Source of the DNA: a virus
Lineage: Duplodnaviria > Caudoviricetes
Direction: 5' to 3' (one strand)
Length of the DNA stretch: 64,000 nucleotides
Virus record (IMG/VR): IMGVR_UViG_3300031851_000001
Positions within the stretch are counted from its first letter, which is position 1. Each line of letters begins with the position of its first letter. Of this stretch, positions 8,990 to 48,898 are shown one piece after another. A program made the position numbers and the translations under genes. The notes beneath the pieces were generated by a model. It worked only from the letters and a program-made list of their open reading frames with translations, ran no database searches and was not told the origin of the DNA.

Positions 8990-9002
8990 ATAATATTATT
9001 TT

Positions 9003-9695: not shown

Positions 9696-9716
9696 ATCTT
9701 AGATCCTTTAATTTTT

Positions 9717-26809: not shown

Positions 26810-27280
26810 ATGATAGAAACATTTGAAGAATTTGAAAACTGGTTAATGACAGAAGAATGCTTTGAGAACCATGATGTATCTCATATAGATAATAACGGCA
26901 ATCAACATTATTTAGAACATTCAGAATACATTTCTTACCTTGGTGCTATTACAATTTTATTAGCAAACAAAGCTACGATTAAAGTAGAACAAGCCGAGCA
27001 ATGGTTTCCACATATAGCTGGAACTGCACACATCTTCTATAACAATGACAATGGTCCATCGTTTGATACTCACACGGATCCTATAGATATTTTAATAGAG
27101 TGCATAGCCGGTAAAAAGACTTTAGAAATAGATGGTAAAGAATATACACTAGGACCTCGCGACAAAATTGGTATTGCTAAAAATACTAAACACAGAGCAC
27201 TTAATTATGAAAAGGCATTGATGATCTCATATGGCATTGGCGATACAGAAACACTTACTCGTATACGTAAAAACGACTGA
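26810..27280 (+). CDS. JmjC/cupin-4-like hydroxylase
   Basis: SFDTHTD (HxD) ...GKKT...KH facial triad in cupin fold. Confidence 0.7.
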   Translation: MIETFEEFENWLMTEECFENHDVSHIDNNGNQHYLEHSEYISYLGAITILLANKATIKVEQAEQWFPHIAGTAHIFYNNDNGPSFDTHTDPIDILIECIAGKKTLEIDGKEYTLGPRDKIGIAKNTKHRALNYEKALMISYGIGDTETLTRIRKND

Positions 27281-28259
27281 AACCTGCAATCTTAATTGCG
27301 CACACTGCTTTACGTCTGGTATTAACGGTAGAAAAATCTACTTTGATGCTGAAAAGACTGCTAAGTGGTGTAATGAGTTGTGTGATGGTACAAACGAAAT
27401 ACATTTTGAATACCACGGTGGTGAACCTTTATTAGCACCTATGGCAGACCTAATGAAGTTTTATAATATTACTAAAGAACATTGGGGTGACCGATGTACG
27501 CATGGTATTACAACTAATTTGGTTTATAAACTTACTGATGAAAGACTTGAGTTTTTAAAATTATTAGATGGTGGTTCTGTAGGCACATCTTGGGATCCAA
27601 ACATTAGGTTCTCTAACGAAAAGCAGCGTAAACTATGGGAAGACAATGTAAAACGTTTAGTTGACGAAGGATGTTTTGTTAAATGTTTTATATCAGTCTC
27701 AAAAGATGTAGTTAAAATGGATCCGCTTGAAATAGCTGACTATATGCATTCATTAGGTGTTGAGTGTATAAACTATGAGCGTTTAACACATGATGGTAAT
27801 GCAACAATTAACTTAGATATTTTTCCGCATAACAGTGAGTTAGATGCCTTTTGGATGAAGATGCACGAAACTACACAAGACCATCCTGTAGCCAATGCGT
27901 TTCTTGGTTCTGTTTATGATAAGTTTAGTAAAGGACAATTTTTTAACGGAACTTTTTGTAGAGACTGCGAACAAAAATTACATACCATCAATGCCGATGG
28001 GACTGTAGCCGGTTGTCCTAACACTGCACCAACTCAATGGTATGGTACTATTGATACTCCTGCAAAAGAAGTTCGTCAATCGCCAAAACGTATGGAAGTT
28101 ATATCATGTGAAATGCACGAAAGAGATCCACGCTGTTATGATTGTCCTGTGTTTATATATTGCCATTCTGATTGTCACCAACTTCAATGGATGGAAGATG
28201 TTTGCCCAGCACCTAAAACATTAATGATGAAACTTGCAAAGGATAAGGGATGGATTTAA
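27231..28259 (+). CDS. radical SAM/SPASM protein (rSAM-A)
   Basis: CNLNCAHC, HGGEP, C-terminal CRDC..CPN and CYDCPVFIYCHSDC...C. Confidence 0.92.
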   Translation: MALAIQKHLLVYVKTTETCNLNCAHCFTSGINGRKIYFDAEKTAKWCNELCDGTNEIHFEYHGGEPLLAPMADLMKFYNITKEHWGDRCTHGITTNLVYKLTDERLEFLKLLDGGSVGTSWDPNIRFSNEKQRKLWEDNVKRLVDEGCFVKCFISVSKDVVKMDPLEIADYMHSLGVECINYERLTHDGNATINLDIFPHNSELDAFWMKMHETTQDHPVANAFLGSVYDKFSKGQFFNGTFCRDCEQKLHTINADGTVAGCPNTAPTQWYGTIDTPAKEVRQSPKRMEVISCEMHERDPRCYDCPVFIYCHSDCHQLQWMEDVCPAPKTLMMKLAKDKGWI

Positions 28260-29290
28260 TTATTAAACCAACAGAGGCTTGTAATTTCAAGTGTACCTTC
28301 TGTTCATCAACTGATATTGATGCTGATAAGGCTGGTTTACTTGATTTAGAATATGTTTATAAATTTCTAAAACGCTATCCTGACACCAATACGATTATTG
28401 TAAATGGTGGTGATCCGTTAATGGTTGATCCAAAATGGTATTGGGATTTGATTGCTCACCTTGACGAACACGATTACCCTGCATCAATTAGTTTTACATC
28501 AAATCTTTGGCCATTCCTTATTAGACCAGAGAAATGGTTACCTTTATTTAAACACGAAAGATTTGGATGTACTACATCATTTCAATATGGTGGTGGAAGA
28601 TTAAAAGGTGATTACTCTGAGTTTACTGAAAAAGATTTTTGGCGGGTATCAGATGCTATGTTAAAACATACTGGTGAACGTCCAAGTTTTATTTCTGTAA
28701 TCGTTGATGAAAACTTTGATGATGCAATTAAAAATGTAGAGCTTGCTAAAGAAATGGGAGTTGAATGTAAACTTAATTACGCTATGGCTTCTGGCGTACA
28801 AGGTTCTACGTTTAGGCTAAGTAAAATATACGAAACCTATATAAAGATATATGATATGGGCTTAGCAGAATATGAACACAATACTAAACAAATGATGGTA
28901 AGATTAAATAAAAATAGTTACACCTCTTGCCCACAGAATAGGCAATGCGATAGTGGTATTCGTGCATTTAATCCGGGTGGTGATTACTATTCTTGTGGTT
29001 CGTTTGCTGACGATTACGATTACCCTATTAATTTTGAAGAAGAGATGAATGGTGAAATGCAGACACCATTGCAGAATGATCCTAATATACAGACAATGAA
29101 AATGGCTTGTTATACATGTCCAATGTTTGATATATGTAATGGTTGTAAGAAAACTGTACGTGATATGAAACGCGAAGGTCAAGCTGAGGATCATTGTTAT
29201 CATATGAAAAAACTAGCACCAAGAATACTTGAAATAAACGGAATGGATCCGGGATTGGCGACACCTTATGTTAATGAATCTATCAATTAA
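28250..29290 (+). CDS. radical SAM/SPASM protein (rSAM-B)
   Basis: CNFKCTFC, NGGDP, CPQNRQC..SC and CYTCPMFDICNGC...C. Confidence 0.92.
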   Translation: MDLIIKPTEACNFKCTFCSSTDIDADKAGLLDLEYVYKFLKRYPDTNTIIVNGGDPLMVDPKWYWDLIAHLDEHDYPASISFTSNLWPFLIRPEKWLPLFKHERFGCTTSFQYGGGRLKGDYSEFTEKDFWRVSDAMLKHTGERPSFISVIVDENFDDAIKNVELAKEMGVECKLNYAMASGVQGSTFRLSKIYETYIKIYDMGLAEYEHNTKQMMVRLNKNSYTSCPQNRQCDSGIRAFNPGGDYYSCGSFADDYDYPINFEEEMNGEMQTPLQNDPNIQTMKMACYTCPMFDICNGCKKTVRDMKREGQAEDHCYHMKKLAPRILEINGMDPGLATPYVNESIN

Positions 29291-30182
29291 TCCAACATAC
29301 TATTGTAACTTTGCTTGTGATTTCTGTTATTTAACTACAGAGCAATTAAACGATAGACATAAAATTACTCCTTTATGGTTAGAAAACAGCCTACAACAAA
29401 TTACTGACAAGGTTGGTCATGTTGATTTATATGGTGGAGAGATTGGTTTACTATCGCCAGAATATTATTATTCATTAAAGAAAGTAATACGCAATCATTA
29501 TAAAGGTCCTATTAATATCAATACTAACTTATCGGCATTCCCTGACTTTTTTAGAGATGAGGATGTAACGTTATCCGTATCATATGATTTCCATGCCAGA
29601 GAAAAAGAGCAGCACATTTTAAATAACATGATGAATGCCAATAAAGATTTATCTGTATTGATATTAGCCTCGCCAAAAGTATTAGAGATGGATGTAGAGT
29701 TTATGATCTTTACGCTTAATATGATTTCTAATGTTCAGTCAGTTGAAATTAAACCATATTCAATTAATCAAGCAAACCAACATAATGTAACACATAAAGA
29801 CTTTGAAGATTTCGTTATTAAGTTTGATGAAGCAAATACAGAAAAGAATTTTAATTTCCAAAACATTGATAATATATACAATAGCATAGAAGGTAAGTAT
29901 GATGCTTTTAGTAATGACCACGTTTACATAACGCCACGTGGAAAATTTGGCGTCTTGGAATTTGATAAATATGATAGAGAATACTTTAAAGAGTACGACA
30001 CTTACCATGAATATTTAACGTGGGCACGTGAAGAACCTGAGAATAATTTGAGCGATATATGTAAGGCATGTTCTTATTATGGGAAATGTTTAACAGAACA
30101 TTATCGGTATGTACACGACTTAACCAATAGTTGTAATGGATATAAAGGGTTATTAGATTATTATGAAAGAATGGAAAGCTAG
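29268..30182 (+). CDS. radical SAM protein (rSAM-C)
   Basis: CNFACDFC, YGGEI, C-terminal CKACSYYGKC...C. Confidence 0.88.
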   Translation: MLMNLSINPTYYCNFACDFCYLTTEQLNDRHKITPLWLENSLQQITDKVGHVDLYGGEIGLLSPEYYYSLKKVIRNHYKGPININTNLSAFPDFFRDEDVTLSVSYDFHAREKEQHILNNMMNANKDLSVLILASPKVLEMDVEFMIFTLNMISNVQSVEIKPYSINQANQHNVTHKDFEDFVIKFDEANTEKNFNFQNIDNIYNSIEGKYDAFSNDHVYITPRGKFGVLEFDKYDREYFKEYDTYHEYLTWAREEPENNLSDICKACSYYGKCLTEHYRYVHDLTNSCNGYKGLLDYYERMES

Positions 30183-30561
30183 GCAAAGCGCATATCATTT
30201 AACGGCATCGTTGTTTAAAGATGATCTGACTGACGTAGAAATTAATTGGCAGCCAGATAATATTGTTGATTATGCTCTTATACATTTCAGAGAATATGTT
30301 GACGAATGGATTTATCCTGCAAAATCATATGTGGTTGCGATATGTTATGCGCATTGGTTAAACAGAGATTTTAAAGAACCATTCTTTGATGCGCTTAATG
30401 ACGAAGCTTTATTGTTTAATAACGATCCACACTTTGTTCCATATTGGCAAGACAAAGATACATATGACGAAATATTATTTAAATTAGACTTTAACGAAAA
30501 ACTTGGTATGGTACCTGACATATACGAATACTATAAAGAGGAAATGTTATTTGGACTTTGA
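30163..30561 (+). CDS. hypothetical protein in radical SAM operon
   Basis: 132 aa, overlaps both neighbours. Confidence 0.7.
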   Translation: MKEWKARQSAYHLTASLFKDDLTDVEINWQPDNIVDYALIHFREYVDEWIYPAKSYVVAICYAHWLNRDFKEPFFDALNDEALLFNNDPHFVPYWQDKDTYDEILFKLDFNEKLGMVPDIYEYYKEEMLFGL

Positions 30562-31627
30562 AATAACAAAAACACTATTAGAAACTAAACGTCCGGATAT
30601 AGCCGAGATTGAGTTGACTTTATTTGAAAACTGTCATCTCAATTGTTCGTTCTGTCACCACGATAAAAAATCTACCGTAGGTTTGAGCAGGGAAGAGATA
30701 TTTTCTAAATTAGATTTGGTTGAACAACATGTCATTAAGATGAAAGGCAGAGTTGATATAATACAAATCAATATGGTTGGTGGCGAGTTATTCCAAGATA
30801 GAATATCAGAATGGGCTTACCCTGTTTACTTTGATTTTTTAGTAGCAATCAAAAAGATATTTGATGAACATAAACAAAAGATTAAAGTTGTATGGGTAAC
30901 ATCGTTTCAATTCAGTAAACGAGATAGAGTTCAGCGACTACTCGACGACTTAAACGCTGAAGCTATCCCTTCCTATATTATATGTTCATACGATTTTGAC
31001 GGGCGACCAACAAAAGGTCCATACGCTAAAAATATAGAATACTTTGCTGATTATATCATATCTATTAATATGGTTGCTACTACTTTGTCAATCAAAAAGT
31101 TTATGGCAGACGACGATGAGTATTTCCATTACTTATATGAAAAGTTTGATGAATTTTACTTTGATGATTATATTCCAGATCGTGGATATGATTATATGAT
31201 TCCATCAGATAGTGAGTACCTCGAGTTTTTAAAATTTGTATACCATCACTATCCTGACATTAACCCTATTAAAGATCTCATATATAATGAGAGTAACCAT
31301 ATGCATTGCTTGGCTTTAAACAAGGTTACGATATTCCCAGATAATTCTACATCAAATTGTCGGTGGGATAGATACGATCAACGAGATTTTAATACAGAAT
31401 ACAAACCTAAAGATAACGCCGGAATGATGCAAGCCTATATGGACGAGAATGGTTGCTTATCTTGTAAGTGGTGGAATAAATGTGGTTTCCGCTGCTATAC
31501 ACAATGGGATTGGAAAAACAGAGAACGCGATTTACCTGACTGCATAATGAGAATGTGGTTTAATTATATGGACAAAACAGGTCAAAATTTGATAACAGGA
31601 TTTAATTATGATAAAGAAAAAACTTAA
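30503..31627 (+). CDS. radical SAM/SPASM protein (rSAM-D)
   Basis: CHLNCSFC, VGGEL, HC..NC and CLSCKWWNKCGFRC...C; true start may be TTG 30551 (SD GAGG). Confidence 0.88.
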   Translation: MVWYLTYTNTIKRKCYLDFEITKTLLETKRPDIAEIELTLFENCHLNCSFCHHDKKSTVGLSREEIFSKLDLVEQHVIKMKGRVDIIQINMVGGELFQDRISEWAYPVYFDFLVAIKKIFDEHKQKIKVVWVTSFQFSKRDRVQRLLDDLNAEAIPSYIICSYDFDGRPTKGPYAKNIEYFADYIISINMVATTLSIKKFMADDDEYFHYLYEKFDEFYFDDYIPDRGYDYMIPSDSEYLEFLKFVYHHYPDINPIKDLIYNESNHMHCLALNKVTIFPDNSTSNCRWDRYDQRDFNTEYKPKDNAGMMQAYMDENGCLSCKWWNKCGFRCYTQWDWKNRERDLPDCIMRMWFNYMDKTGQNLITGFNYDKEKT

Positions 31628-32327
31628 ACTTGATTTTTACACAGCACACCAAACACTTGTAGACTTACAACCAATTAAAGCCAGAACTAAGCCACCAACG
31701 TGGTGGAAATCTATTAAGAATTCGTATGACCAATTTAGGTCTAGGGTTGGCGTTAACGTTCCAACTCCGACGATTAAAACATGCCCAGGAATTGTTGATT
31801 ATATGCGTAAGCCTATCGTTCTTAAATTGTGGTCAGATGGTATTTTTAGAGTAAAACCAAATGGCAATGTTGAGTGCATTGAGCCATTACATAATTCTGG
31901 TCAACTTGATGGATCTCAACATGAACGTAAACAATTTGGCGATACATTATATCCAAATAGAACTGTATTTAAATTACATGGACCTTGGGCTGTTAAGGCA
32001 AGCGAACGTAAAGAGTTTATGATTACTGAATGCCATTATAGTGAGGATTTGCGTAAGCACGATATTTTAATATCACCTGGGATTACAAACTTTTATGACC
32101 AACACACATTAAACGTATTCTTAGCGTTTCCAATTAAAGACGAAGAATATACTGTTACACTTAAATATGGTACGCCTTTAATGTCAATATACCCAATGCA
32201 CGAAATGGAACTTGATATTAAAATGCATGAGGTAGAATCAAAAGAGAAATGGCATAGAATACAACACGTATATCCATCAACCTTTATCGGACGTTATCAC
32301 TCCCGGAAACACACACGCAGTAAGTGA
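31608..32327 (+). CDS. hypothetical protein, marine-phage family
   Basis: 239 aa, TIKTCPGIVDY...LWSD and LKYGTPLM..YP motifs; last gene of the + operon. Confidence 0.65.
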   Translation: MIKKKLKLDFYTAHQTLVDLQPIKARTKPPTWWKSIKNSYDQFRSRVGVNVPTPTIKTCPGIVDYMRKPIVLKLWSDGIFRVKPNGNVECIEPLHNSGQLDGSQHERKQFGDTLYPNRTVFKLHGPWAVKASERKEFMITECHYSEDLRKHDILISPGITNFYDQHTLNVFLAFPIKDEEYTVTLKYGTPLMSIYPMHEMELDIKMHEVESKEKWHRIQHVYPSTFIGRYHSRKHTRSK

Positions 32328-33332
32328 ATGGTGTTCCATATAAGATAGGACACCTTTATCAATACATGTCATTAAATTTTTACAAGAAGCACAATTGTCA
32401 GTTTCACTTGAATAAGTCAACTGTGACATAAACTTATTTTCTTTTACTTGAGTCCATGACTCAATATCGTTTTCATCTTTGACCACAAAATTATCTGTAC
32501 CAATTAAAGCAATATCATATACGAATGGTGTCCAAAAGAAACGTTCGTTACAATAAGTATAATTTAATTCTAAAGAACCACCTTGTGCTTGGTCAATAAA
32601 TGTTTTAGGCATAAGGTCGTCGGCAAAGTCATAGTTTTTCCATTTCTCAATAAGATGCTTTTGCACTTTAGATTTAGGTGCTCGGAAGAATGATGGATTT
32701 AAAGTAAGTATAGAATCAAACCGTTCCTCAACAAGTTTTGACATCTCGAGTACTTTATTATTCTCAACATCATCATTACCCATATTATATACCATATAAT
32801 AATTTAAATCATCTGTCAACTCATTTAATATTCCTAATTTATATTCAAGTACATTCCAATTAACTGGCGGCTGCAGGGCTATGTTACAATCATACATAAA
32901 TCCCTCGGCCTTTGGAATACTATTCAGCATTTCAATAATATTAAAATCAATCTTTTCTAATGTTGTAACGAATTGAATAGTAGTTACTTTACTTAAACAC
33001 TCTCGGAATGTTTCGTCTTTCAACAACTCGGTGATATTATTATTACCAAATAAATCAGTTGGACCAATATTAATGGTTGACACGCGATAGCCATTGGTAT
33101 TAAATAAATCAATGGCGTTGTTTAATCTATCAAATGATCCCATATTTGATCCGAGTTTATTGACAAAACAACCTTTACATTTAAACTCGCAGCCAGATAA
33201 TACTTCGCAATTAAATTGTACTTTGATTTCATGTCCTTCACTAAAGGATAAATCAAAATCTTTATCAGCTTGTGCAGCACGCTTATTGTTAGTAACTATT
33301 CCCATGGTATACCTCATCATCATATAAACCAA
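32277..33332 (-). CDS. divergent radical SAM protein (rSAM-I)
   Basis: CEFKCKGC, IGPTDLF, C-terminal CASCKNLMTC...C. Confidence 0.85.
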   Translation of the reverse strand: MVYMMMRYTMGIVTNNKRAAQADKDFDLSFSEGHEIKVQFNCEVLSGCEFKCKGCFVNKLGSNMGSFDRLNNAIDLFNTNGYRVSTINIGPTDLFGNNNITELLKDETFRECLSKVTTIQFVTTLEKIDFNIIEMLNSIPKAEGFMYDCNIALQPPVNWNVLEYKLGILNELTDDLNYYMVYNMGNDDVENNKVLEMSKLVEERFDSILTLNPSFFRAPKSKVQKHLIEKWKNYDFADDLMPKTFIDQAQGGSLELNYTYCNERFFWTPFVYDIALIGTDNFVVKDENDIESWTQVKENKFMSQLTYSSETDNCASCKNLMTCIDKGVLSYMEHHSLTACVFPGVITSDKG

Positions 33333-34443
33333 TTACATCTTTATTTAAGATGCATTCTTTTCTTCCATCAAACACAGTATCCATAATCATTGGAACCATT
33401 CTATTCGCACATATATTTAAATACTTACAACTGCCACACTCTTTTTCAGAACTTTTTTCAATTTGGCTATTGACAATCTCGTTCTTTTTGTTTAATATAT
33501 AATCAACAATATCGGCATCAGGTAACCAAAGCCAACTATTATCAACTTTAAAATCATCTGTATGGATTTGAGCATTCTCATATATGAATGGCGACAAATA
33601 CATATCTCCGTGGTATATACTAACTACAGAATAATGAAACGCTTTATGTGATACGTCACCTTGTAAGAAATGGAATTTGTTTTTAAACTTATGTGGATCT
33701 GCAGCCAATCGAGTTAACATATCATTCCATTCAAATAGTTTGTCTCCGTGCTTTGCGCTATGATTAAAAGAACGTACTACTGACGGTAATACTTCGATTA
33801 CTGTTTCATACCTAGCTCTAACAAATTCAATAGCAGGAAATAATATATCTTCTACACCTTGCACGATATTAGTAGCCATACTTATTTCAAAGTTTAAAGA
33901 ACTATTTTTAAATGTTTCAACTCTTTCATCAAGTGCATCTAGGTATACCTGATCATTCATTAATCTATTTAAATCCAAAGCAATTTGTACATCCCATGCT
34001 TCGACTACTTCGCCTAGCATTGAGTTTTCAATAGCTTTTATTTTACCTTCAATATCTTTTTCAGATAATGATCCGAGTATAGAACAGTTATGTTGGATAT
34101 TTCTATTATCTTCAGGCATCATGGATATGGCATCAGCAAGCCTTTGATTATTAATAATCTCTTCTAAATTTTGAGCACCATAAAAGTCGGTTGGGCCAAT
34201 CACAATGTCGTCTAATACAATATCAGTTCTATCTTTTAATTCAAATGCCAAGGAATGAAATGTTGCGATTGAGTTTGGGTTCCAATTACCTTTACGTTTA
34301 ACAAAACAACCCGGACACATATATGAACAACCTTCGAGTATTTCAAGGTTGACCTGTATTTTATATTCTTTCATATTGTCGATTGAAGTAAATTCCTCAC
34401 CTCGCCCACCGTCTACAATATTTTTCCAATCATTATTTAACAT
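33289..34443 (-). CDS. divergent radical SAM protein (rSAM-H)
   Basis: CSYMCPGC, IGPTDFY, CGSCKYLNIC...C. Confidence 0.85.
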   Translation of the reverse strand: MLNNDWKNIVDGGRGEEFTSIDNMKEYKIQVNLEILEGCSYMCPGCFVKRKGNWNPNSIATFHSLAFELKDRTDIVLDDIVIGPTDFYGAQNLEEIINNQRLADAISMMPEDNRNIQHNCSILGSLSEKDIEGKIKAIENSMLGEVVEAWDVQIALDLNRLMNDQVYLDALDERVETFKNSSLNFEISMATNIVQGVEDILFPAIEFVRARYETVIEVLPSVVRSFNHSAKHGDKLFEWNDMLTRLAADPHKFKNKFHFLQGDVSHKAFHYSVVSIYHGDMYLSPFIYENAQIHTDDFKVDNSWLWLPDADIVDYILNKKNEIVNSQIEKSSEKECGSCKYLNICANRMVPMIMDTVFDGRKECILNKDVIGLYDDEVYHGNSY

Positions 34444-35590
34444 ATGATATATCCTTTAATCGTTTTAGTTCTGGATCGTCATCATCAGTAACTAAAAACT
34501 TTTTACGATAACCGTTCTTATCGTTTTCAACAGAATAACCATCCCATCCATACATTGTCTGAGCAGGACCATTATAATTGTTTATATTATTTAGCATATT
34601 CTCTTTTGGTGCTATGCAGCGGTCTACTCCAAGGTAATCCCTTAACATTATTATTTTTCTGTTATAACAACTAAAGAATAATGGGCAATCCTCGCATTCA
34701 GTACCTTTTGCTCTTTTAATTTGATGTTCAACCATTGGAACAACATCATCAAAAGATTTGACTTTAAACATATCATCATATATCGCCATGTTCTCATACA
34801 TAAATGGACTTAAATACCATTCACCGCGTTTGTAGTTTAATACAGTGTAATTAATACCTGCGTGAGAATGGTCTACCATAATATTGTTTAGCTTGGACTC
34901 TTGGTGCCATGTGCTAAAGTATTCGTTAAACTCATCAAGCGTTTTTAAGATTATGTTTGCTTTATGCGAACGAGATACTGACGGAATAAAATCTAATATA
35001 GTATCAAAACGTTTTACAGCCTGATCATGCAATGCCTCATAATCTAATCCATAATCTTTAATGTTAACAACAAACGTATAAGTAACCTCATGTTGAATGT
35101 GTGTATCTATATAGGCTAACATATCTGATATATGTTTTGTGTATTCGTCAGTAAAAAACTTATGTGGATTTGTAGCGATACCAATTTCTATTTCAGTATC
35201 TAAATTAATATTATCAATAAGGAAATCGCAAAACTTTTTAATATCACCATCAATAAGAGTAGAGACAAAAGCTAGGATAGGTGAGTTTTCATTAATGATA
35301 TCTACGAGTTCTGGCATTACTTGATAGAAATTTTCTGATGCTAAAAAGTCTGTAGGACCAATTAATATTTCATCAACAAGTATCCCTTGGTCAGTAATAG
35401 AACGTATGAACTCTTTTGCCATATATACTTGGCTTTTATCACTAGAGTTACCCCGTCGATGTACAAAGCATCCAGGGCACTTGTGGTGACAACCGTCTAG
35501 TACATCCATTTGAATTTTAACAGCGCTGACGGGCTTAGTTTGGGTCTCTGTCGTCATCTCATAATAGAGATTATTTTTAATCAGAGGCAT
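34433..35590 (-). CDS. divergent radical SAM protein (rSAM-G)
   Basis: CHHKCPGC, IGPTDFL, CEDCPLFFSC...C. Confidence 0.85.
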   Translation of the reverse strand: MPLIKNNLYYEMTTETQTKPVSAVKIQMDVLDGCHHKCPGCFVHRRGNSSDKSQVYMAKEFIRSITDQGILVDEILIGPTDFLASENFYQVMPELVDIINENSPILAFVSTLIDGDIKKFCDFLIDNINLDTEIEIGIATNPHKFFTDEYTKHISDMLAYIDTHIQHEVTYTFVVNIKDYGLDYEALHDQAVKRFDTILDFIPSVSRSHKANIILKTLDEFNEYFSTWHQESKLNNIMVDHSHAGINYTVLNYKRGEWYLSPFMYENMAIYDDMFKVKSFDDVVPMVEHQIKRAKGTECEDCPLFFSCYNRKIIMLRDYLGVDRCIAPKENMLNNINNYNGPAQTMYGWDGYSVENDKNGYRKKFLVTDDDDPELKRLKDISYVK

Positions 35591-36599
35591 ACATATATTC
35601 CTTTAATGCGACGCAGCTATCTAATCCTCGCGACTCCATATATAAATGTATATTACGTTCAGCACAACTCATCATATACTCGCAGCCATTACAATCATCA
35701 ACCTGTTGAGCATAATCTATATTTTCATATAAAGTATTCGCATCCATTGTTGTTTCAAAATTTGGAGTTCTTTGAATAATAACATCATACAAGAATGGAT
35801 TTAAATATAGTTTATTATTATAGAAGCTATAATTTTGGCAGCCATATCCATTAAACTTTGCATCAAAAAATGTATAAAGGTTAAGCCATTTCTTATCAAT
35901 ATCTTGCTCAATCATTTCACGTCTAAAGTTTGCAAGGTGTTGTTCTACTTTACCACGCGCGTTCCTATCTGTTAAAAACGACGGTGTAATTATAACTGGT
36001 GCATTATAGTCATCATATATCCGTTGACATAAGTCGTTATATGTGATACGCTTAAATACATCTTTATGATAATTAACTCTAAATTGAACTGAACCTAACT
36101 CAAACATTTTAAGTTTACGGTTCCAATCGTCTAGTTCTCCATCAAGGTACTTGTCTATATCTAAAACGATTTTAAAATCAATATCAGGTACTCTATGAAC
36201 ACCTTCATATAAACTCCATATCATATCAAGTTTAGTTCTTATCTCGGCATATGATTGAAGTAATGTTGATGTAAATCCAACTGCTGATATTTCGTAAAGC
36301 TTTTTCATATATGGATGTTTCATAATTTCATGGAAGTTCTCTGCATCAAAAATGTCAGTAGGTCCAATCGTTATCTCGTCAGGATAATATGCGCCGTCCA
36401 TTAATAAATTGTATAATGTTTCTAAGTATTCAGGTTTAGTAAGGTTTTTACGTGGAATAAAACATCCTGGGCACGACTGAGCGCAGCCATGTAATATGTC
36501 TAGGTTTATTTCAGTACGTAAGAAGTCTGTATTAATAGGGCTCTTATCTTTATCATACGTATAATAACCTGCATATGTTTTATTCAGTTTTACTATCAT
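35577..36599 (-). CDS. divergent radical SAM protein (rSAM-F)
   Basis: CAQSCPGC, IGPTDIF, CNGCEYMMSC...C. Confidence 0.85.
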   Translation of the reverse strand: MIVKLNKTYAGYYTYDKDKSPINTDFLRTEINLDILHGCAQSCPGCFIPRKNLTKPEYLETLYNLLMDGAYYPDEITIGPTDIFDAENFHEIMKHPYMKKLYEISAVGFTSTLLQSYAEIRTKLDMIWSLYEGVHRVPDIDFKIVLDIDKYLDGELDDWNRKLKMFELGSVQFRVNYHKDVFKRITYNDLCQRIYDDYNAPVIITPSFLTDRNARGKVEQHLANFRREMIEQDIDKKWLNLYTFFDAKFNGYGCQNYSFYNNKLYLNPFLYDVIIQRTPNFETTMDANTLYENIDYAQQVDDCNGCEYMMSCAERNIHLYMESRGLDSCVALKEYMYASD

Positions 36600-37416
36600 C
36601 GGCTACACTAGCGGCATTGGCTTTAGCCTCTGCTTCGATTTCAGCTTGTAAATCTTCATCAGACTTTGGTTTTGGAATTTCAACGCTGTTAATAAACCCA
36701 GGAGGCATCATTGATAAAATGTTACTAGTAATATTACTTTGTGTCAATAAGAAAAACAAATCTTTACCAAAGTATGCAGGTTTATCATTATACATCTGTT
36801 TATTATATTCTTGTTTAAATCCAAGCATAGAACAAACTAATAGGAAACCATCCCAGCCATCTATAAGAAGGCGTGCAACGTTTGGACCACAATTTGCTGG
36901 CTTGTCAGTTACTTCAATTTGCTCAACAGCTTCTTTTACATCAACTTCAATTGCTTTGTTTTCATCTGATAAGTTTTCGTAAAATTTGCAGAGTGTGAAT
37001 GGAATAAGTTCAGCCATTGCATTACAAACATCTTCTATAAGTTCATAGTTTTTGTCTACGAAGTCGTGCAATTGTTCTTTACTAAAGAGGCCAAGTAATT
37101 GTTCTTCTAAGCCATTAAACTCATACATGTATCTTACTTTGATTGCCATTACAACAAACCGTGATAGCAGTGGTGCTTCTACGATAAAGTCTGATTTAAT
37201 ATATTCTATTAATAGTTCTTCGTCAACCTGCGCAAAGGTTGTTTTAAAATTAGTATTGGCCAAATAGATTAGAATATGTTTGGCTGATAACTTTTCTTTT
37301 GATGCTAAATAATCTACCCATAAAACAAAGTTTTCGTTGTCTTCTTTTAATTTATATATTTCAACTAAATTTTGCGGTGCTAATGGCAGCGTATATAAAG
37401 TTTGCTCTTCACTCAT
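36580..37416 (-). CDS. hypothetical helical protein in radical SAM operon
   Basis: 278 aa, overlaps next gene. Confidence 0.75.
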   Translation of the reverse strand: MSEEQTLYTLPLAPQNLVEIYKLKEDNENFVLWVDYLASKEKLSAKHILIYLANTNFKTTFAQVDEELLIEYIKSDFIVEAPLLSRFVVMAIKVRYMYEFNGLEEQLLGLFSKEQLHDFVDKNYELIEDVCNAMAELIPFTLCKFYENLSDENKAIEVDVKEAVEQIEVTDKPANCGPNVARLLIDGWDGFLLVCSMLGFKQEYNKQMYNDKPAYFGKDLFFLLTQSNITSNILSMMPPGFINSVEIPKPKSDEDLQAEIEAEAKANAASVADDSKTE

Positions 37417-37431
37417 AATAAAATCACTTTC

Positions 37432-38535
37432 TTATATCAATGGGTATTTATGAATTAAATATGGAATTCTGTTTTGACGTTTTGAAAAGAACTGAACATC
37501 TGTGTTAATTAATGCCAAGTCTTCTCTAATATTATCTGTGTTAAAGTTTCTTTCTAAAACTTTTTTAACAATAGGGAACACGTTATTGATTTCAGTATAT
37601 AAATCCATGTATTCCCAACCGTCAGCAGTCGTATCAGCTTTATTTTGATGAACGGCTATAAAGGCAGCGTCGTCTTTAACTTTATTCCACATTTCTTCTA
37701 ATTTATAAAACGCTAATGTATAGTTAGATTTATTAGCAGCATTTACATATACGTCTTTAAAGAATTGTTGTTTATCTGTAGCCCAGCCATTTTCTTCAGT
37801 TGCATTAGCATTCATATAATCAATAACTGACATAATATATGCCGAGTAGTGACGACGTGAAGTAAAGTGTTCCATAACATCTTTTGCCATAACTGGTGAA
37901 TGAATAGTAAATTTTTCAACAATCAATTCTGAAACGCCTGCACATGAATAGAAATCGTTTAAGAAGAATAGCAAGTCATAACTAAAGTTTTTACCATTCT
38001 GATATGTAATTACCCAAGGTGTTTCGCCTTCAGCATTTAATAAAGTATTTGTATGGTTTCTAACATCGTTATAAACTGTCGAGTTGCTCATTAAAGATAA
38101 TACTAAATCTTGGTTAATAACTGCTTCCATATAATGAGCAACCATCGCATTAATTGTTGTTGCATCTGCGTCAGGATAAAAACCACATGATGTTAACAAA
38201 CCAGCAGTATATTTTGCAAATACTTTAATCATATCCTCTTCGTCTGTAAACATAAGAATACGCTTATCACTATTTTGAATATAAGTAGGATTGGCAATAG
38301 TATCCCATTCTTCAAAATCTAATAGTTCTGATGAGCCTGATCGTGCACCTTCTGCCAGCGCTTCATACTCAGCAGGCTGAAGAAATGAGTCTACAAGGTC
38401 AGGCTGTACAATAGTAATTCGTCTTGGTTCAGCAGTGTGGTAAAAAGAATTTAATTCACCAATTACTGTTTCAACGTTTTGTGTATTCGTAATATACTTT
38501 TTATTATTTAAGTAATATAAACTCTGCCCAATCAT
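37432..38535 (-). CDS. hypothetical protein in radical SAM operon
   Basis: 367 aa, ATGA overlap with rSAM-E stop. Confidence 0.75.
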   Translation of the reverse strand: MIGQSLYYLNNKKYITNTQNVETVIGELNSFYHTAEPRRITIVQPDLVDSFLQPAEYEALAEGARSGSSELLDFEEWDTIANPTYIQNSDKRILMFTDEEDMIKVFAKYTAGLLTSCGFYPDADATTINAMVAHYMEAVINQDLVLSLMSNSTVYNDVRNHTNTLLNAEGETPWVITYQNGKNFSYDLLFFLNDFYSCAGVSELIVEKFTIHSPVMAKDVMEHFTSRRHYSAYIMSVIDYMNANATEENGWATDKQQFFKDVYVNAANKSNYTLAFYKLEEMWNKVKDDAAFIAVHQNKADTTADGWEYMDLYTEINNVFPIVKKVLERNFNTDNIREDLALINTDVQFFSKRQNRIPYLIHKYPLI

Positions 38536-39707
38536 GATCTTACTCCTAATTTTTCTATTGCGTCATCGTTCCAAGTAAAATCATACGGGTTATATTCTGC
38601 AAGGACATCTTTGTTCAATACACAACCGTTGACGTTTAATGATTCTTGGGCTTCAAAGATTAATCTGCTTGCACAGGCAACTGCAAATTTACAGTCAGCA
38701 CAATCTTTTACTTTACTAGACCTATTTATACCTTTTGTCACTAGTTCATTTTTACGATCTAATATTTGCTCGAATGTTAAACCAGTAACATCTAAATTTT
38801 TATTACCTAAGAAAAACGCTTGCTCATGCAGCATTACATTTAGGTGTGTAGTTGGACCATTTTCTCCTGGGACAATAGTAAGTCCAACAAAGTTAATTGA
38901 GTTACAATAAAGATTAGCCATTGACATAACGGTTTCTTGCGCATTATCTTTATCAATAACTCTACCAAGGAAATCGTTCCAACCAAATAAATTCTTTCTT
39001 TGTATCAATTGTGAATTGGCTCTAGAGAAAGCAGGGTTCATTTCTACAATTGTTTCATATTCGTTTACAGATTTTTGAATAATTTTATTATAAGTTTCTT
39101 TATCAATTTTTCTACCAACAACGTTAGAAGCCTGTAATGTCCACGACCAATCCATTTGTTTTGGTGTATTATTTTTAAAGAACTCTACCTTTTCCATAAC
39201 GTTATTAAAATATTCGTCATCGTTTAACATCTGATCTACTCTACCGATTGGCATAATAAATTCGATAATCATTTCGCGACGATACTTATCCTCATCATCA
39301 AGTACGGCAAAGATTTCTTTTACTTTATCCATAGTAGCCAAATCAAATTTAGCAGGTGCCGCGATACGAGCGCCAGTATGTTCTCTCATAATTTCTTGGA
39401 CTACTGAATTATTTAATACTGACTCTGTATTTTTAGCAGTGAAAAAGTCTGTTGGTCCAATAACGAACTCTCTTAAGTTAAGTCCAGTTCTTTTTACACC
39501 ATCTGCTAATTCTTTTGCTCTATCAATAATTTGTTGGTTCATAGCAGGGTCTATGTTTTTATCAACGAAACAACCTAAGCAGCCGTGATTACATCCTGCT
39601 AAAACTTCCATTTGAATTAGAACATCAAACTTAGTAGCATCTGACGGTGTTAGGCTTTCTGGACCAGAGTACCGCATTTGCTTACAATATGATTTTTGCA
39701 TTGACAT
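38532..39707 (-). CDS. divergent radical SAM protein (rSAM-E)
   Basis: CNHGCLGC, IGPTDFF, CADCKFAVAC...C; start at 39707, 1 nt after the upstream stop (track's 39800 extension lies in the upstream gene). Confidence 0.85.
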   Translation of the reverse strand: MSMQKSYCKQMRYSGPESLTPSDATKFDVLIQMEVLAGCNHGCLGCFVDKNIDPAMNQQIIDRAKELADGVKRTGLNLREFVIGPTDFFTAKNTESVLNNSVVQEIMREHTGARIAAPAKFDLATMDKVKEIFAVLDDEDKYRREMIIEFIMPIGRVDQMLNDDEYFNNVMEKVEFFKNNTPKQMDWSWTLQASNVVGRKIDKETYNKIIQKSVNEYETIVEMNPAFSRANSQLIQRKNLFGWNDFLGRVIDKDNAQETVMSMANLYCNSINFVGLTIVPGENGPTTHLNVMLHEQAFFLGNKNLDVTGLTFEQILDRKNELVTKGINRSSKVKDCADCKFAVACASRLIFEAQESLNVNGCVLNKDVLAEYNPYDFTWNDDAIEKLGVRS

Positions 39708-40473: not shown

Positions 40474-43400
40474 CTATACTTTAACCTCTACTTCACCATT
40501 TTCACTATCAGATATCGCAATACCAATAATATCAAAGCTATTTATACCAGCAGTACCATAGTCTACGGCACGGCCTTTACCATCACGATCAGCAATAATC
40601 CATTGACCTTTAGTTGCATCGCCATTAATAAGAACTGGAATACGTCCTTTAAGAGCAACGAATGGGTTCATCTTAGACTCAATAGAGTCATCGTTGTCAT
40701 ATTCAATATGCTCATTCATTCTGTATGCAGGATTTGTAGAAACCGCACCAGCAACTGGCATTCCGGGTTGATACAATGTTACTTCTTTATCGCCGCCGAT
40801 ACCTAGGATATACCCAGGACCATAAATCGCGTCTGCTTCATATCTCTCTGCAAGGTCAGCCCATCTTGCTGACGTAGCCGTACCAACAAACACACCATCG
40901 TTTGCGATATAAGATCTATCAGAACCATTTTGTCTAAACTGACAAATTCTGTTTGAGTTTCCGCCTGCAACGATATAGAAACGGTTTGAGTGATATTCAA
41001 TTTTACCAACGTCGTTTCCTGGGTTACCTGTCCAGCTTTCGTTACCTGATTCTTCAAATCTAATACATGGTGAATAACCATCTTGGTGGCGAGTTCTTAA
41101 CTGCCATTGTCCTGCAGCATTTAAATCACCGGACCATGTTCTGTCACCATACATCCAACGACACATTGTACCGTTATATGTCGCTCTAAGTTGGAAAGAC
41201 ATAGATGAAGAGTTATTGTTACCAGTAGCAGCCCAATACTGACCTTGATAAGAATAAAAGTGTCCACCTGTACCTTGGTTATATAATCCATTGCGTGCTG
41301 AATCATTTCGGAGCCAACTCCTAGCATAAATATCGTTGCCTCTCATACCTGTATTAAAGTTAGAAAACGATGCTGGATCACAATAATAACCGGTGTTGTT
41401 TGAGTCATAGAAGATAGGCGCACGGAAGCTAAATCCTGAGTAAGCATAGTTTGCATCACCATAAACTCTAAACAAGTCAGAGTTACCAATACCACCAGTT
41501 GCCTGACCGTGTCGGCCAATATAGAAGTCTGCGCCAGAAGTATTGTTGTTATTTGAGTCTAAGTTAATATACACAGAACCATATGAGTTGATACGAATAT
41601 CGTCAGAAGTGTTACCATTAAGATCTCTAGCAGAGATTGAGTGGTTTGTGCTGTTATCACCGTATAAGGTAATAAAGTCACCACGATCACGCATATCAAA
41701 CTGGTCAGCTCGTACAACATTCATTTGAGATGTAGATGCAGGGTCTGTATAACGACCCGTGTTATTATTGTCATAGAATATTTGAGCTCTTAATGAACTA
41801 CGTGCTTGTAATGAGTTATTTACATAAACATCATTAGCACCTAATGGATCAGTCGCATTGTTGATTGACATAACCTGATTATTCATGTTGTAGTCATCAT
41901 AGAAACGCATACCATTATAGTTTGCATTAGCACCAAACTTAATACCTGTATGGAAAGCAATTCTTAAATCAGGGTAACGATATGACCAACCACCGCCTTC
42001 ACGGTAAATAGCATAAGCAGCTGATTCATTAGATGAAAAGTATAAACCAAACGTATCGTCTTGTGATACATCATCTTTATGTATAAACCTATTTGCTCGA
42101 ACATCGCCAGCAAAACTGTTGTCACCGGCTGGATTTAAGAAGTATGAAGAGTTGTTACGATCGTAATAAACATCGGCATACATATTACCATATACTTCAG
42201 TTGTACCACCGCGAGTTCTTAATGCCCATCCTGCACTATTATTAAGGAAACCAATATCATTCGAGTTATTTGCATATACATAACCTCGAATAGTACCGGC
42301 GTTTTCATCTCTAAATCGTATACCATTAGCAGATGAACCACCAGCAATGTTCCAATAGTCATCATTATCTGAATAGAAATGCTGACCTGTTGCAGTGTTA
42401 TATAAACCTCTACCATTTGTATCGTTACGGAACCAACCATCGTTATATACTTCAGAACGAATATCAAGTGTGTGCATTACCGATGTACTAGCAAAGTCAC
42501 CATAATAACCTGTGCTATCTCTATCGTAATATCTGCCAGCGTAAGCTCCGCCTGTTACGAATACATTACCGTCACCACGAACGAGAAGATTTGTTGTTCC
42601 GGATAATCCGCCATCTTTAAATGCGATGTCTTCACCACCCGATGTAGCAATAATTAAATGATTATCGTTTGTATCAGTAGCTTGGATATAACCACGAACA
42701 TTACCAGCACCCGTAATAAATTGAGCTTCACCACCATCAGCAAACTGAATAACATCAACTTTTGATGTATTTGATGGATCCATATAGAAAGACGTATTAT
42801 CTGAGTCAACTAATCTACTTGCATAGAAGTATGAACTTGTACCACCACCTGGGTTAGCGTTATAGATAGCAATATCAGAATAAGAAGAATAGGCTGTACC
42901 TGAGTTCCATGACTGTTGCCATAGACGCATACCACGACCAGACTTTTTAAACATCAATAAGTTATCTGAACCACCAGAAGAGTCTGTGTAAGATCTTAAG
43001 TGTAAGTAATCGGCATATGGTGCAGTGTTATCGTTGTTCCAAGATGTGAAACCAAACGTTAGTCGACCCGCAGTATCTTCATTTGGTTCAATAATACGGT
43101 TATCTTTTCGTAACAATGTTTGAGCATAACCATCAACATTACCTTGGATTACGTTATCAACTTGTAGTGTTAATAGTCTTGAAGTACCGTTACCATCAAT
43201 TTTATATGCAGTGTTATCACTATCATACCAAATTGGTGAACGTAACTGATTAGTACCTAAGAAGAAACCATCTTTAGTAGAGGCTTGTTCTGTACCAGCC
43301 CAATGAAGTTCTGTATCACCTGCTTGGCGATAGATCGTAGCCCACTGATTGTTCGTATCGTTATAGATACCAGCAATACCAGCTCCACTTGACATGAATA

Positions 43401-46400
43401 CCCAGTCATCGTTAATAGCATAACCTGCGTAACCACCTTTATTACCAGTTACACTAATGGAACCATAATTACCAGTAGATGTATCTAATTGATAAGTTGA
43501 GCCACCAAATTGAACTGCGTTTGCACGAAGAACATTAGTAAGAGATGTTGAAGCAGGATCTAAATAATAAGCATTATCGTCTGAGTCATAGAACCGACTT
43601 GCATAAGAACCGTTTAGAGCAGTATGCGTACCTGTTACAACAACATTACGAGACATAGCCCAATCACCATTAGCATCAGTCCAGTTATCGTCAGTAACAA
43701 ATCTTAGTCTGTCTGGGTTAGTACCCTCTGCCATTCTAAGCATTTGAGTTCCACCAGCAACCAACTGCATATCGTCAGCGCCAATAAATCTGATATATGT
43801 ATTTGTATCACCATTATGTCTGATATATTCATCAGCACGTATTTCGTTAAATACAGATGTTGAAGCAGGGTCAGCATAATAAGCTGAGTTATTAGAGTCA
43901 TAAAACCTTTGAGCATATGAATAACGTCCAGCCCAAACATCACCGTCAGACTCAACACGTAAACGATATGTACCATTACCGGCGCCAGATGTAAATTGTA
44001 AATTACCACCAGAATTTGTTGCTAAGTCATTTGGTGACTCATAAATTTGCCATAGGTTTCCGCCGTTCCATGCTAGTCCTTCAGACGGTCCCGGATCGTT
44101 GAATGTTAATTTGTTTACGTTATTAATATTACCATTTGTCCAATCCCAGTTACCTGCGACTTTAGATGGACCTTTTGGTTCAATATAATAGTTAGTATCG
44201 TTAAGATCTCTAAACCTACCAGCATCAATAATATTTGCTGATATGTTGTCTGCAGAAACATCACCAGTAACAGTAAGATCCCCACCGATTGAAGCATCAG
44301 TAACGACAGTTAATCCTTCAGCTTTTATACTCGATTGTACATCAACTCTCTTTAGAATTGGTGGACCAAATTCACGAGTTGCACCGTTTGGCGCAAAGTT
44401 CATAAGAGAAACTAATCTAACAAACCGAACACCTGCACCATCTGAACCATTAAATGGCGTATGGGTAGTTGGAAGCGTATGCTCACCTTTATATTCAGTC
44501 CAGCCTGTGGCGGTGTGGTCAACCGCAGATGCCGCGAAGTATACAATACCATCGTTAGCAGCAATTGGATTTTTATCTTTATCGTATTGTCTAACACCTA
44601 AGTAAAATAAACCGCCAGTACCACTGATGCGTCGTACTGCCTGTTCTGCATAAATTGTTTCTCCCGGCTCAACTGGAATAAAGTCAGAGTCAAAATCTCT
44701 GTAACCGTTAGTTCTTAATACATAACTTGATGCGAATGGGCCATCACCATTTAAAACATAATCACTGGTAGATGTAGTTGCGCTATTTTCAATACCTTGC
44801 ATTGGTTGGATAACTCGTTTATCCCAATAATCTGATGCATCAAACATTTTCATATCAGCAAGGCCAGAGCCATACGTTTTTAACAATCCAAGATTTTCAT
44901 TACCACCATTAAGAGCAAGTGATCCAAATATACCAGCGCCATAAGCTTGTATGTCACCATTTTCTGAGAACCAGAAACGCTCACCTATATTATTAAACGA
45001 AATACCCATCGCAGAGCGAGAGTTTCTTGTTTGGTGGAATATAGATGGGAAGTTAGCATCAGCAGTAGTATTTTGTAAAACGATCAAACGTTGTTGTGCA
45101 GACTTAACTTCAAGTGGATATGTAGTATTATTAAAGATTGCGCTATCGCCTGCCTTAACAGATTTAAGTCTAGATTGACCAGACGGTTGCATATAAAATG
45201 CAGCGTTATTTAAATCATAGAATATTGGAGAACGCATACTGTTTGGAGCAGAACCATAACCGTTTTCAGCACCAATTTGGTGAATGTTATTTGAATGTAA
45301 TCTTGTAAAGTTATTTCTGTTTGCAGTCAGTGACCATTCATTATCAGTCTCGTTATACAGACCCATCTCTGTAGCACCGCTGGATATAAAGCCCCAGTCA
45401 TTACTAATCATATAACCTGCATAACCATCTCTTTCGCCTTCAACCATAATAGTCCCTTTAGGACCTGATGGTGAGTCGATAGTTAGAGAACTGCCATCCA
45501 TTTGGATTTGATTTGTTCTAACAACATTAAGTATAGATGTTGAAGCAGGATCTAAATAATAAGCATTGTTTCCTGAGTCATAATAACGTGGAGCGTAAAC
45601 ATCAAGGTTAAAGTCAGCAGAGTTATCATCAATGTTTAATCTCTGTGTATTATTGATAAACAATTTATAGATACCAGCGGCTGAGAAACCGAAGTATGTA
45701 TCTTCATCACCTTTATGTCTAATATAATCGTCTAAGTCAATTCTATTCATTACTGATGTACCAGCAAAGTCACCATAATAAGCGTTGTCATTATAATCGT
45801 AATAAGTAGGGAAATATGCCATGTCATTGGCATCGGCTGCTGATATGCCGCCGTTGAAATTCACTCTCTTATTGAATAGGAATATTGCTCTGTCTGTATC
45901 AAACTGAGCTGACCCTGCAACCTTAGATCCAATATCTAAAGTACCAGTTGGTGTTGTGAACCTATGAGCATTGGCTGTATTTGGCTCAAACTTGTAAGTT
46001 CCACCAGCATCAGAGAATATTGGAGAACGCATATCTGTTGCAGCTTCAGCATATGTTGAATATACATCAAGCTGTGCGGTTCCACCGGCAGTAAATATAA
46101 TTTGGTCAGCGCCAAAACCAATTTTAGTATTAGTATTTCCGTCGTGTATAATTTCACCGACAAGACTTATATTATTCATTCGTGATGTACTAGCAAAGTC
46201 ACCGTAGAATAAAACATCATCTGCATCTAGGTATTGAGCGAATGAAGCATTACCTGTTGATGTGAGTAATTTATTATTTCTAATTCTAAGATTGTTGGCA
46301 TCGTTCATATAGAAACCGCCACCTTGACCAAAGCCAAGTTCATCCATTCTTAGGAATGTAGCAGTTCCATTACCGACAACATATGCATCATCAGTACCAT

Positions 46401-48861: not shown

Positions 48862-48898
48862 TCGGTTCACTCTCCCCAGTTAGGCTTATTCTTTATTG

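Follow-up and report, generated by a model that had tools for sequence, protein, structure and literature searches.

The DNA analyzed here (hereafter the window) is a stretch of 64,000 nucleotides from IMG/VR record IMGVR_UViG_3300031851_000001, a sequence of 64,102 bases from an uncultured virus that is estimated to be 29% complete. The source virus is a T4-like myovirus, with a tail sheath that shares 40-43% identity with those of the Stenotrophomonas phage DLP_6, the Caulobacter phage Cr30, the Sinorhizobium phiM phages and Pelagibacter myophages. A tightly packed run of minus-strand genes encodes, in this order, a 2798-residue repeat-rich protein, a pair of small proteins of 126 and 127 residues (hereafter the tail-bearing proteins, after their conserved C-terminal tail), p1, a 367-residue protein, a 278-residue protein (unk278), p2, p3, p4 and p5. 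The five proteins p1 to p5, which are paralogues with motifs of radical S-adenosylmethionine (SAM) enzymes, hereafter rSAM enzymes, are the subject of this work. A plus-strand run convergent on the first one encodes a cupin, three enzymes of the rSAM/SPASM type (canon1 to canon3), a 132-residue protein, a fourth rSAM enzyme (canon4) and a 239-residue protein (Table 1). The true start of p1 is almost certainly the ATG at 39707, which is located one base past the TAA of the upstream gene for a tail-bearing protein and behind a purine-rich stretch, and not the TTG at 39800 of the mechanically called open reading frame. Scans of the region for sigma-70 promoters and terminators gave site counts that did not exceed those of shuffled sequence, and a megablast search against 50,697 phage records returned no match.

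The five minus-strand proteins can be aligned with one another over their whole length with pairwise identities of 19-27%. The columns that are invariant in all of them are C-x3-C-x-G-C-F, I-G-P-T-D and C-x2-C-x5-C followed by another Cys 16 residues on. This alignment bears out the original prediction, made from the letters of the window only, that all five share a CxxxCxGC loop (with the tetrads CKGC, CLGC and, three times, CPGC), a GPTD motif and a single C-terminal CX2CX5C...C set. The longer form I-x-IGPTD, which had been attributed to all five, is found in four of them, p1 having F-V-IGPTD. As had also been noticed, the four plus-strand enzymes all carry GGE or GGD; they have His or Phe before the third Cys. 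For the wider family, motifs were counted in the 150 best cluster representatives. CX3CX2C, near the N-terminus, is detectable in 134 of them, the others being fragments or proteins extended N-terminally past the scanned region. The residue that precedes the third Cys in these 134 sequences is Gly in 125 cases, Asp in seven, Ala in one and Asn in one, and is never aromatic. GPTD or a near variant (GATD/GPSD) is present in 100 of the 150 representatives and CX2CX5C-X16-C in 128. Such near-invariance indicates that these motifs are family signatures under strong constraint, far beyond what chance would give.

Searched exhaustively with the family profile, a set of 1.84 billion cluster representatives yielded only 216 clusters (50% identity) at E values up to 0.001, and a word-indexed search retrieved 289 close relatives, none of which has a Pfam domain. 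None of the five proteins scores above threshold with a Pfam or NCBIfam model, sub-threshold matches being limited to Radical_SAM, Fer4_12 and NrdG. For instance, Radical_SAM (PF04055) scores at best 18.2 bits, versus a gathering threshold of 29.5 bits, and does not match two of the five, while the SPASM model TIGR04085 matches one at 13.9 bits, versus a cut-off of 27 bits, and the other four not at all. The sole library family matched by the five is phrog_31457, an unannotated PHROGs family, and the match is weak (E 1e-5 to 1e-7). When compared with PDB sequences, the family profile found no solved structure, with a marginal match of the cluster loop to GDGT-MAS (E 0.009). The five proteins combine CX3CXGC, GPTD and CX2CX5C-X16-C with a neighboring protein ending in (CHxS)3-RxRR and with four core rSAM genes, a joint definition that we call GC-type and that also applies to members from Ralstonia phage RSL2, Pseudomonas phage pPa_SNUABM_DT01 (DT01), IMG/VR loci and Bdellovibrionota. 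GC-type proteins are thus a well-defined new subfamily inside the known rSAM superfamily, and the five belong to no characterized family with a known small-molecule substrate. The original prediction of a phage-specific subfamily expanded by duplication holds for the distinctness of the subfamily and for the duplication, and not for the phage specificity, as members occur in Bdellovibrionota; moreover, the duplications are ancient. The ESM Atlas neighbors of p2 are 96-100% viral. One fused member (P0194, at L064:2107-3693) reaches 528 residues with about 200 extra N-terminal residues, and adjoins homologues of canon1, canon2 and canon4.

The age of the duplications was assessed from a tree of 67 family members (17 loci). 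Five orthogroups, p1 to p5, are resolved, all with Shimodaira-Hasegawa-like approximate likelihood ratio (SH-aLRT) supports of 99-100; their stem branches measure 1.2 to 2.6 changes per column. In every five-copy locus, each orthogroup has one member, and the position in the operon is conserved. Loci with two copies hold p1 and p3, the three-copy locus p1, p2 and p3, and the four-copy locus p5 as well; a six-copy locus (L030) has p5 twice. The GC-type copies of jumbo phages fall outside all five orthogroups, on long branches. The most conserved orthogroup is p1. CX3CXGC and GP(T/S)D are found in every one of the 30-35 unique orthologues of each group, down to 33-57% identity, and only three orthologues, out of the 33 in p1, lack the auxiliary Cys pattern. 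The tandem arrangement and common architecture of the five genes could suggest recent duplicates that are functionally redundant. However, pairwise identity is only 19-27%, and the tree, with its five deep orthogroups, one member per locus and fixed order, refutes this view, which we consider extremely improbable. Judging from these sequence comparisons, the five genes are ancient, non-redundant paralogues and not recent serial copies.

These genes belong to a larger system. The loci compared were 56 IMG/VR loci that carry the family, RSL2, DT01 and the window. In 22 of these loci, the sequence ahead of the first family gene covers 4.5 kb or more, and all 22 encode one or two tail-bearing proteins of the (CHxS)3 type. 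Loci whose flanks extend far enough also have the four canonical rSAM genes. In an alignment of 59 tails, the invariant columns are C, H, S, C, H, C, H, S, R, G, R and R, the two proteins of the window ending CHxSCHxSCHxSRGRR. Between the window and RSL2, E values range from 1e-64 to 1e-132 for the core enzymes and are about 1e-10 for the GC-type protein. The invariant core of the system is a small protein ending in (CHxS)3-RxRR together with four well-conserved canonical rSAM enzymes. Its usual companions are a cupin, 2-oxoglutarate (2OG) oxygenases and two unassigned proteins. For unk278, the predicted model has a mean predicted local distance difference test (pLDDT) score of 87.8, the best structural Z is 5.0 and the sole match in AlphaFold DB is an uncharacterized protein. 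Weak profile matches to unk278 at the equivalent position in RSL2, DT01, the phages Atu_ph07 and Phosso (see below) and Bdellovibrionota loci suggest that it is probably a core component. The 367-residue protein was seen in marine loci only. Pfam, NCBIfam, PHROGs and ESM Atlas gave nothing usable on the function of either protein, and the idea that both are degenerate GC-type paralogues was rejected (hhalign probability below 1%). Upstream of the two tail-bearing proteins, the 2798-residue protein may be fibre-like from a reading of its sequence; no search supported a fibre identity. Farther away, a 1566-residue minus-strand protein (55387-60087) is similar to S74-domain proteins of Bdellovibrionota and is probably a tail fibre that includes an intramolecular chaperone domain.

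Table 1. Coordinates of the GC-type genes, of their neighbors in the window and of related features in other loci (locus handles precede the colon).
Feature	Coordinates	Strand	Remarks
p1, GC-type rSAM paralogue	38532..39707	-	391 aa from ATG at 39707; CNHGCLGCF, FVIGPTDFF, CX2CX5C-X16-C
p2, GC-type rSAM paralogue	35577..36599	-	340 aa; CAQSCPGCF, ITIGPTDIF; protein used for the model
p3, GC-type rSAM paralogue	34433..35590	-	385 aa; CHHKCPGCF, ILIGPTDFL
p4, GC-type rSAM paralogue	33289..34443	-	384 aa; CSYMCPGCF, IVIGPTDFY
p5, GC-type rSAM paralogue	32277..33332	-	351 aa; CEFKCKGCF, INIGPTDLF
367-aa protein inside the operon, between p1 and p2	37432..38535	-	function not assigned; conserved in marine loci
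278-aa protein (unk278), between p1 and p2	36580..37416	-	confident model, no known fold
Putative substrate B, 127 aa	39709..40092	-	C-terminus CHASCHTSCHSSRGRR
Putative substrate A, 126 aa	40092..40472	-	C-terminus CHASCHSSCHSSRGRR
Giant 2798-aa repeat-rich protein	40474..48870	-	directly upstream of the two tail-bearing proteins
canon1, canonical rSAM/SPASM core enzyme	27231..28259	+	CNLNCAHC, GGEP, CX2CX5CX3C
canon2, canonical rSAM core enzyme	28250..29290	+	CNFKCTFC, GGDP; 54-60% identity to jumbo-phage orthologues
canon3, canonical rSAM core enzyme	29268..30182	+	CNFACDFC, GGE; C-terminus only CX2CX5C-X14-C
canon4, canonical rSAM core enzyme	30503..31627	+	CHLNCSFC, GGE, CX2CX5CX3C
Cupin-domain protein	26810..27280	+	conserved in the system
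132-aa protein	30163..30561	+	function not assigned; conserved in the system, in phages and Bdellovibrionota
2OG-Fe(II) oxygenase	26136..26699	-	conserved near the system
RSRR/RARR tails, only in systems without GC-type genes	L067:10983-11873; L068:10940-11860; L159; L160; L193:2090-2647		
B12-domain rSAM	L124:6638-8554; L135:6605-8554; L148:6991-8697; L147:5854-7485 and 8093-9709; L195:2284-4125		
Divergent subgroup of Bdellovibrionota	L157:5892-6905; L161:166-1188; L153:1634-2644; L182:4998-5999		L182: Ser before third Cys (CFKTCESCF)

The Gly before the third Cys and the GPTD motif had been taken as possible signs of an altered SAM chemistry. This is not borne out by comparison with NrdG, the well-studied and active rSAM activase of the anaerobic ribonucleotide reductase. 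Indeed, the E. coli NrdG sequence reads GCVHECPGCY and SGGDP. A profile alignment of the family with NrdG (hhalign, probability 90%) superposes the cluster loops and places G-P-T-D onto S-G-G-D with the acidic residue retained; a conserved Asn located seven residues downstream of this acidic residue also matches. The best alignment covers the N-terminal 114 residues of the family. The GGE motif of rSAM enzymes sits at the end of strand beta2, and in the model of p2 described below GPTD lies at the C-terminal end of this same strand. Since NrdG has CPGC and GPTD aligns on its GGD, neither deviation is an argument for a lost or altered SAM cleavage. Alongside the likeness to NrdG in the cluster loop and the GGD-type motif, there are clear differences: NrdG is a single-domain activase of 154 residues, whereas the five proteins have 340-391 residues, with a full barrel and an Fe-S domain. 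Furthermore, they score 13-21 bits with the NrdG equivalog TIGR02491, versus a cut-off of 126, and no NrdD partner is encoded in the window, the record being 29% complete.

An AlphaFold2 model of p2, built on an alignment of 134 sequences, has a pLDDT of 92.8 and a predicted template modeling (pTM) score of 0.91, and shows six beta-alpha units that form the partial (beta/alpha)6 TIM-barrel core. In an exhaustive structural alignment, the best 30 matches of this model (Z 14.3 down to 7.0) are all solved rSAM enzymes. The top-ranked ones modify peptides or proteins and are of the rSAM/SPASM or twitch type: anSMEcpe (Z 14.3, 280 residues aligned), ChlB (13.2), CteB (13.1), TigE (12.5), PqqE (12.2), SuiB (12.1) and SkfB (12.0). 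Foldseek lists the same enzymes, and the Swiss-Prot structural neighbors of p2 include AlbA, PqqE, anSME and MftC. The best matches cover residues 27-340 of p2, the alignments with anSME, ChlB and CteB reaching the last residue. The family thus resembles SPASM enzymes (anSMEcpe, CteB, ChlB, SuiB, PqqE, AlbA, MftC) in its overall fold over the full length, including the C-terminal Fe-S domain, and in the proximity of its genes to a Cys-rich, peptide-like tail; as in anSME, the N-terminal RRE (peptide-recognition) domain is absent. It differs from them in having four of the seven SPASM Cys, Gly instead of an aromatic residue and GPTD instead of GGE, and in lacking any supra-threshold SPASM or Radical_SAM model and any sequence match to a solved chain.

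In the model of p2, the domain that follows the barrel consists of a beta-hairpin (strands 254-260 and 263-266) and then helices. The seven-Cys SPASM motif, CX9-15GX4C-gap-CX2CX5CX3C-gap-C, binds two auxiliary clusters (PMC6231123). This motif is incomplete in the family: CX2CX5C-X16-C is kept, the hairpin has no Cys and the Cys of CX3C is replaced. A profile alignment of low probability places the CX2CX5C...C of the family onto the CX2CX5CX3C...C of canon1. We take this set to be the ligand set of the second auxiliary cluster (Aux II) of anSME. The family domain would accordingly be SPASM-derived, with the cysteines of Aux II and without those of Aux I, i.e. the converse of twitch domains. 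In twitch enzymes (BtrN, MoaA and SkfB), the SPASM-type domain is also shortened and holds one auxiliary cluster, the first Cys of the motif binding Aux I (PMC6231123). Twitch enzymes therefore keep the Aux I half, whereas the family, by motif correspondence, appears to keep the Aux II half. We know of no described example of such an Aux II-only arrangement, in a literature that was not searched exhaustively. The C-terminus of canon3 has the same four-Cys pattern, CX2CX5C-X14-C, and is weakly matched by the family profile, which points to an origin of the GC-type proteins by duplication inside the system. Judging by this pattern, canon3 may likewise bind one auxiliary cluster, and the GC-type C-terminal domain may have evolved from it. 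Among the four canonical enzymes, canon4 is the best profile-profile match of the whole family (probability 73%).

GC-type genes are not required for the presence of the core. A search with canon2 showed that two other phages, Agrobacterium phage Atu_ph07 and Sinorhizobium phage Phosso, also have the system. It follows genes for giant virion structural proteins there and consists of canon1 to canon4, a protein resembling unk278 and a tail-bearing protein ending ...SRSRR; the complete genomes of these two phages contain no family member. Four further loci (L124, L125, L135 and L148) have a complete core and an RGRR tail, no family member and, instead, an rSAM enzyme of 570-650 residues of the B12-domain type. 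Such B12-binding-domain enzymes (540-650 residues, STRGCPFKCAFCEWG), of which there are one or two per system devoid of GC-type genes, look like an alternative accessory module, and one genome (G010) encodes both a GC-type enzyme and a B12-domain enzyme. The canon1 tree requires at least eight switches between presence and absence of the family, and the nearest outgroup of the window is devoid of it. The number of GC-type copies per system varies from 0 to 6. Such repeated gains and losses, together with the relatives that lack these genes, indicate that GC-type enzymes behave like the tailoring enzymes that vary in biosynthetic clusters and not like core machinery. We looked for a relation between copy number and the number of tail-bearing proteins or repeats and found no pattern. 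Hence, the suggestion that each copy acts on one position is weakly supported at best: almost every system has three repeats in its tail, whereas its GC-type copies number anything from 0 to 6. Campylobacter phages have rSAM fold neighbors, yet the canon2 search finds no copy of the system in them.

The system also extends beyond phages. A scan of prokaryotes (one genome per species) with the back-translated tail pattern gave 40 matches versus about 0.1 expected, as estimated from base frequencies. About 27 of them are true C-terminal tails with core or GC-type neighbors, most of which belong to Bdellovibrionota and lie on contigs as long as 1.29 Mb. In a Halobacteriovoraceae genome (G006), the locus (L192/L193; G006:C1:285000-324999) is flanked by genes for a serine dehydratase, an acyl-CoA dehydrogenase, YchF, an Mrp-type ATPase and a class A penicillin-binding protein. 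Such housekeeping flanks indicate a chromosomal context and not a prophage. This system itself lacks the GC-type family and adjoins a protein with a domain of the fibre-chaperone type Peptidase_S74. The G010 locus (L194/L195; G010:C5:70000-109999) encodes a typical family member (CKFNCKGCF, GPTD, X16) and two S74 proteins. The system occurs at further Bdellovibrionota loci (L153-L186), one of which (L156) also adjoins an S74-domain protein; other carriers are devoid of the family. Fibres terminated by S74 are phage-like prey adhesins of Bdellovibrio (PMC10769870), and the S74 neighbors in G006, G010 and L156 suggest a link to prey-recognition fibres. Fibre or adhesin genes adjoin the system in the marine window, in Atu_ph07, in Phosso and in the three Bdellovibrionota loci examined. 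Phages dominate the known members, and the family is common to phages and predatory bacteria. A further subgroup, found in Bdellovibrionota, is divergent: it has CxxGCKNCF, with Asn in front of the third Cys, lacks GPTD and shows X15 to X19 before the last Cys (Table 1). Two tail-bearing proteins of Bacteriovoracia (L171:864-1433 and L179:156-764) have four CHxS repeats instead of three. A Dysosmobacter segnis contig encodes a protein of 119 residues (L170:3907-4266) that consists largely of tandem CH(S/T)SCHSS units followed by CHSARGRR, and the same genome has two GC-type genes on a separate contig (G017:C67).

Several reports touch on such genes. Many rSAM genes were reported, without characterization, in marine T4-like genomes (PMC5332604). 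In pelagimyophages, rSAM cassettes, also uncharacterized, belong to a host-recognition cluster and differ among closely related phages (PMC7029224). Among described systems, the antiphage system HXS comes closest in logic; in it, the His-x-Ser repeats of HxsA are matured by the rSAM enzymes HxsB and HxsC with HxsD, the modification mapping to such a repeat (PMC13128918). Both systems associate several rSAM enzymes with a protein that has tandem H-x-S repeats. However, the repeats described here are C-H-x-S, they are located at the extreme C-terminus and the genes lie in a fibre-adjacent region and not in a defence island. Moreover, the HxsB and HxsC models (TIGR03978 and TIGR03977) do not match the five proteins at E up to 1, and those of HxsA and HxsD match none of the neighboring proteins.

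On a slight balance of probability, we favor the view that the five proteins are active rSAM enzymes, each responsible for a distinct and optional modification of the tail-bearing proteins. A SAM-cleaving [4Fe-4S] cluster would be bound by the NrdG-like CxxxCxGC loop within the (beta/alpha)6 core, and GPTD, at the end of beta2, would serve as a variant of GGD/GGE. The C-terminal SPASM-derived domain would carry a single auxiliary cluster (Aux II), and the enzymes would operate without an N-terminal peptide-recognition domain. As a facultative tailoring module that is often gained or lost, the GC-type enzymes would act on the same tail protein as the core, each paralogue performing a distinct radical-mediated step. 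When p1 was modelled together with tail-bearing protein B, SAM and two 4Fe-4S clusters, the score was 0.01, which is no evidence either way. Several points weigh against this proposal. No model of a known family matches at threshold, and the profile finds no solved structure by sequence. The copy number (0-6) tracks no visible feature of the tail, and no paralogue can be tied to a given residue. The basis of the Aux II-only assignment is a correspondence of motifs and a profile alignment of low probability rather than atomic coordinates. Finally, GC-type proteins evolve much faster than the core, which would also be compatible with some variable substrate in place of the near-invariant tail. 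This last point introduces an alternative that we find rather unlikely, i.e. that the enzymes are active on another substrate, such as the variable N-terminal domain of the tail-bearing protein, neighboring fibre proteins, the two unassigned proteins of the operon or a small molecule. Besides their divergence, faster than that of the four core enzymes beside an almost invariant tail, the existence of core systems without them and their location in a region called the host-recognition cluster in pelagimyophages, with its variable rSAM cassettes (PMC7029224), are in line with it. However, GC-type proteins were not found outside the system with the tail-bearing protein, p1 starts one base past the stop codon of the gene for such a protein, and no alternative conserved substrate motif was seen.

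The other explanations question the reaction rather than the substrate. That the five are non-catalytic Fe-S scaffolds or partner subunits of the canonical enzymes, as the original prediction had envisaged, would agree with the failure of all members to reach the Pfam Radical_SAM threshold, with the deviation of the aromatic and GGE positions from the superfamily consensus, and with the existence of multi-rSAM systems that include partner proteins, such as HxsC-HxsD (PMC13128918). A pure scaffold would have no need for a SAM-site signature, yet the three Cys of the SAM cluster, the Gly and GPTD are kept in every one of the 30-35 orthologues of each group, down to 33% identity; moreover, the same Gly is found in active NrdG and GPTD aligns with the GGD of NrdG. 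We therefore disfavor this explanation as quite improbable. The likeness of the N-terminal 114 residues to NrdG raises still another idea, in which the proteins would be activases acting on the terminal RGRR, the Gly of which would lose its C-alpha hydrogen to give a glycyl radical or a Cys-to-Gly thioether. All the systems that bear the family do have Gly at this position, the Ser/Ala variants (Atu_ph07, Phosso, L159, L160 and G006) being devoid of it. However, these variants belong to two clades only, and the association has no statistical support (among independent pairs, one goes the same way, none the opposite way and four show no difference). Many systems without the family keep Gly. Furthermore, an oxygen-sensitive radical is implausible in phages of the oxic ocean, and the sequence around the Gly of RGRR is presumably unlike the glycyl-radical motif, which also counts against this idea. 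We regard it as very unlikely.

Returning to active enzymes that modify the tail-bearing proteins, a broader proposal can be made, which we put forward as a tentative possibility and not as the expected outcome. GC-type proteins may be a new rSAM subclass with an NrdG-like SAM site and a 'reverse twitch', a SPASM remnant reduced to the Aux II cluster. Up to five or six distinct radical tailoring steps, specific to the lineage, would modify the (CHxS)3-RGRR tail of a protein associated with fibres, and the entire pathway would be a maturation system, so far unrecognized, for host- or prey-recognition machinery, common to tailed phages and Bdellovibrio-like predators.

Maturases of the rSAM superfamily that act on folded proteins, and not on short peptides, are rare. 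Here, up to ten rSAM genes are packed around one tiny, almost invariant Cys/His/Ser tail. The system offers a natural experiment, the same core being found with 0, 1, 2, 3, 4, 5 or 6 extra enzymes or with an enzyme of the B12 type. Since the enzyme complement varies on the same core, the comparison of products across carriers could reveal new radical chemistry stepwise, and the system has cultured carriers in the Ralstonia phage RSL2, the Pseudomonas phage pPa_SNUABM_DT01 and the Agrobacterium phage Atu_ph07. If confirmed, the half-SPASM domain with a single cluster would bear on the role of Aux II without Aux I in SPASM enzymes. With the motif deviations mostly explained, the interest of the five genes lies in an ancient five-fold paralogy within a facultative module of a widespread, uncharacterized system. 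The fibre and adhesin neighborhood of this system hints at a post-translational step that may be common to the recognition apparatus of invaders of bacteria.

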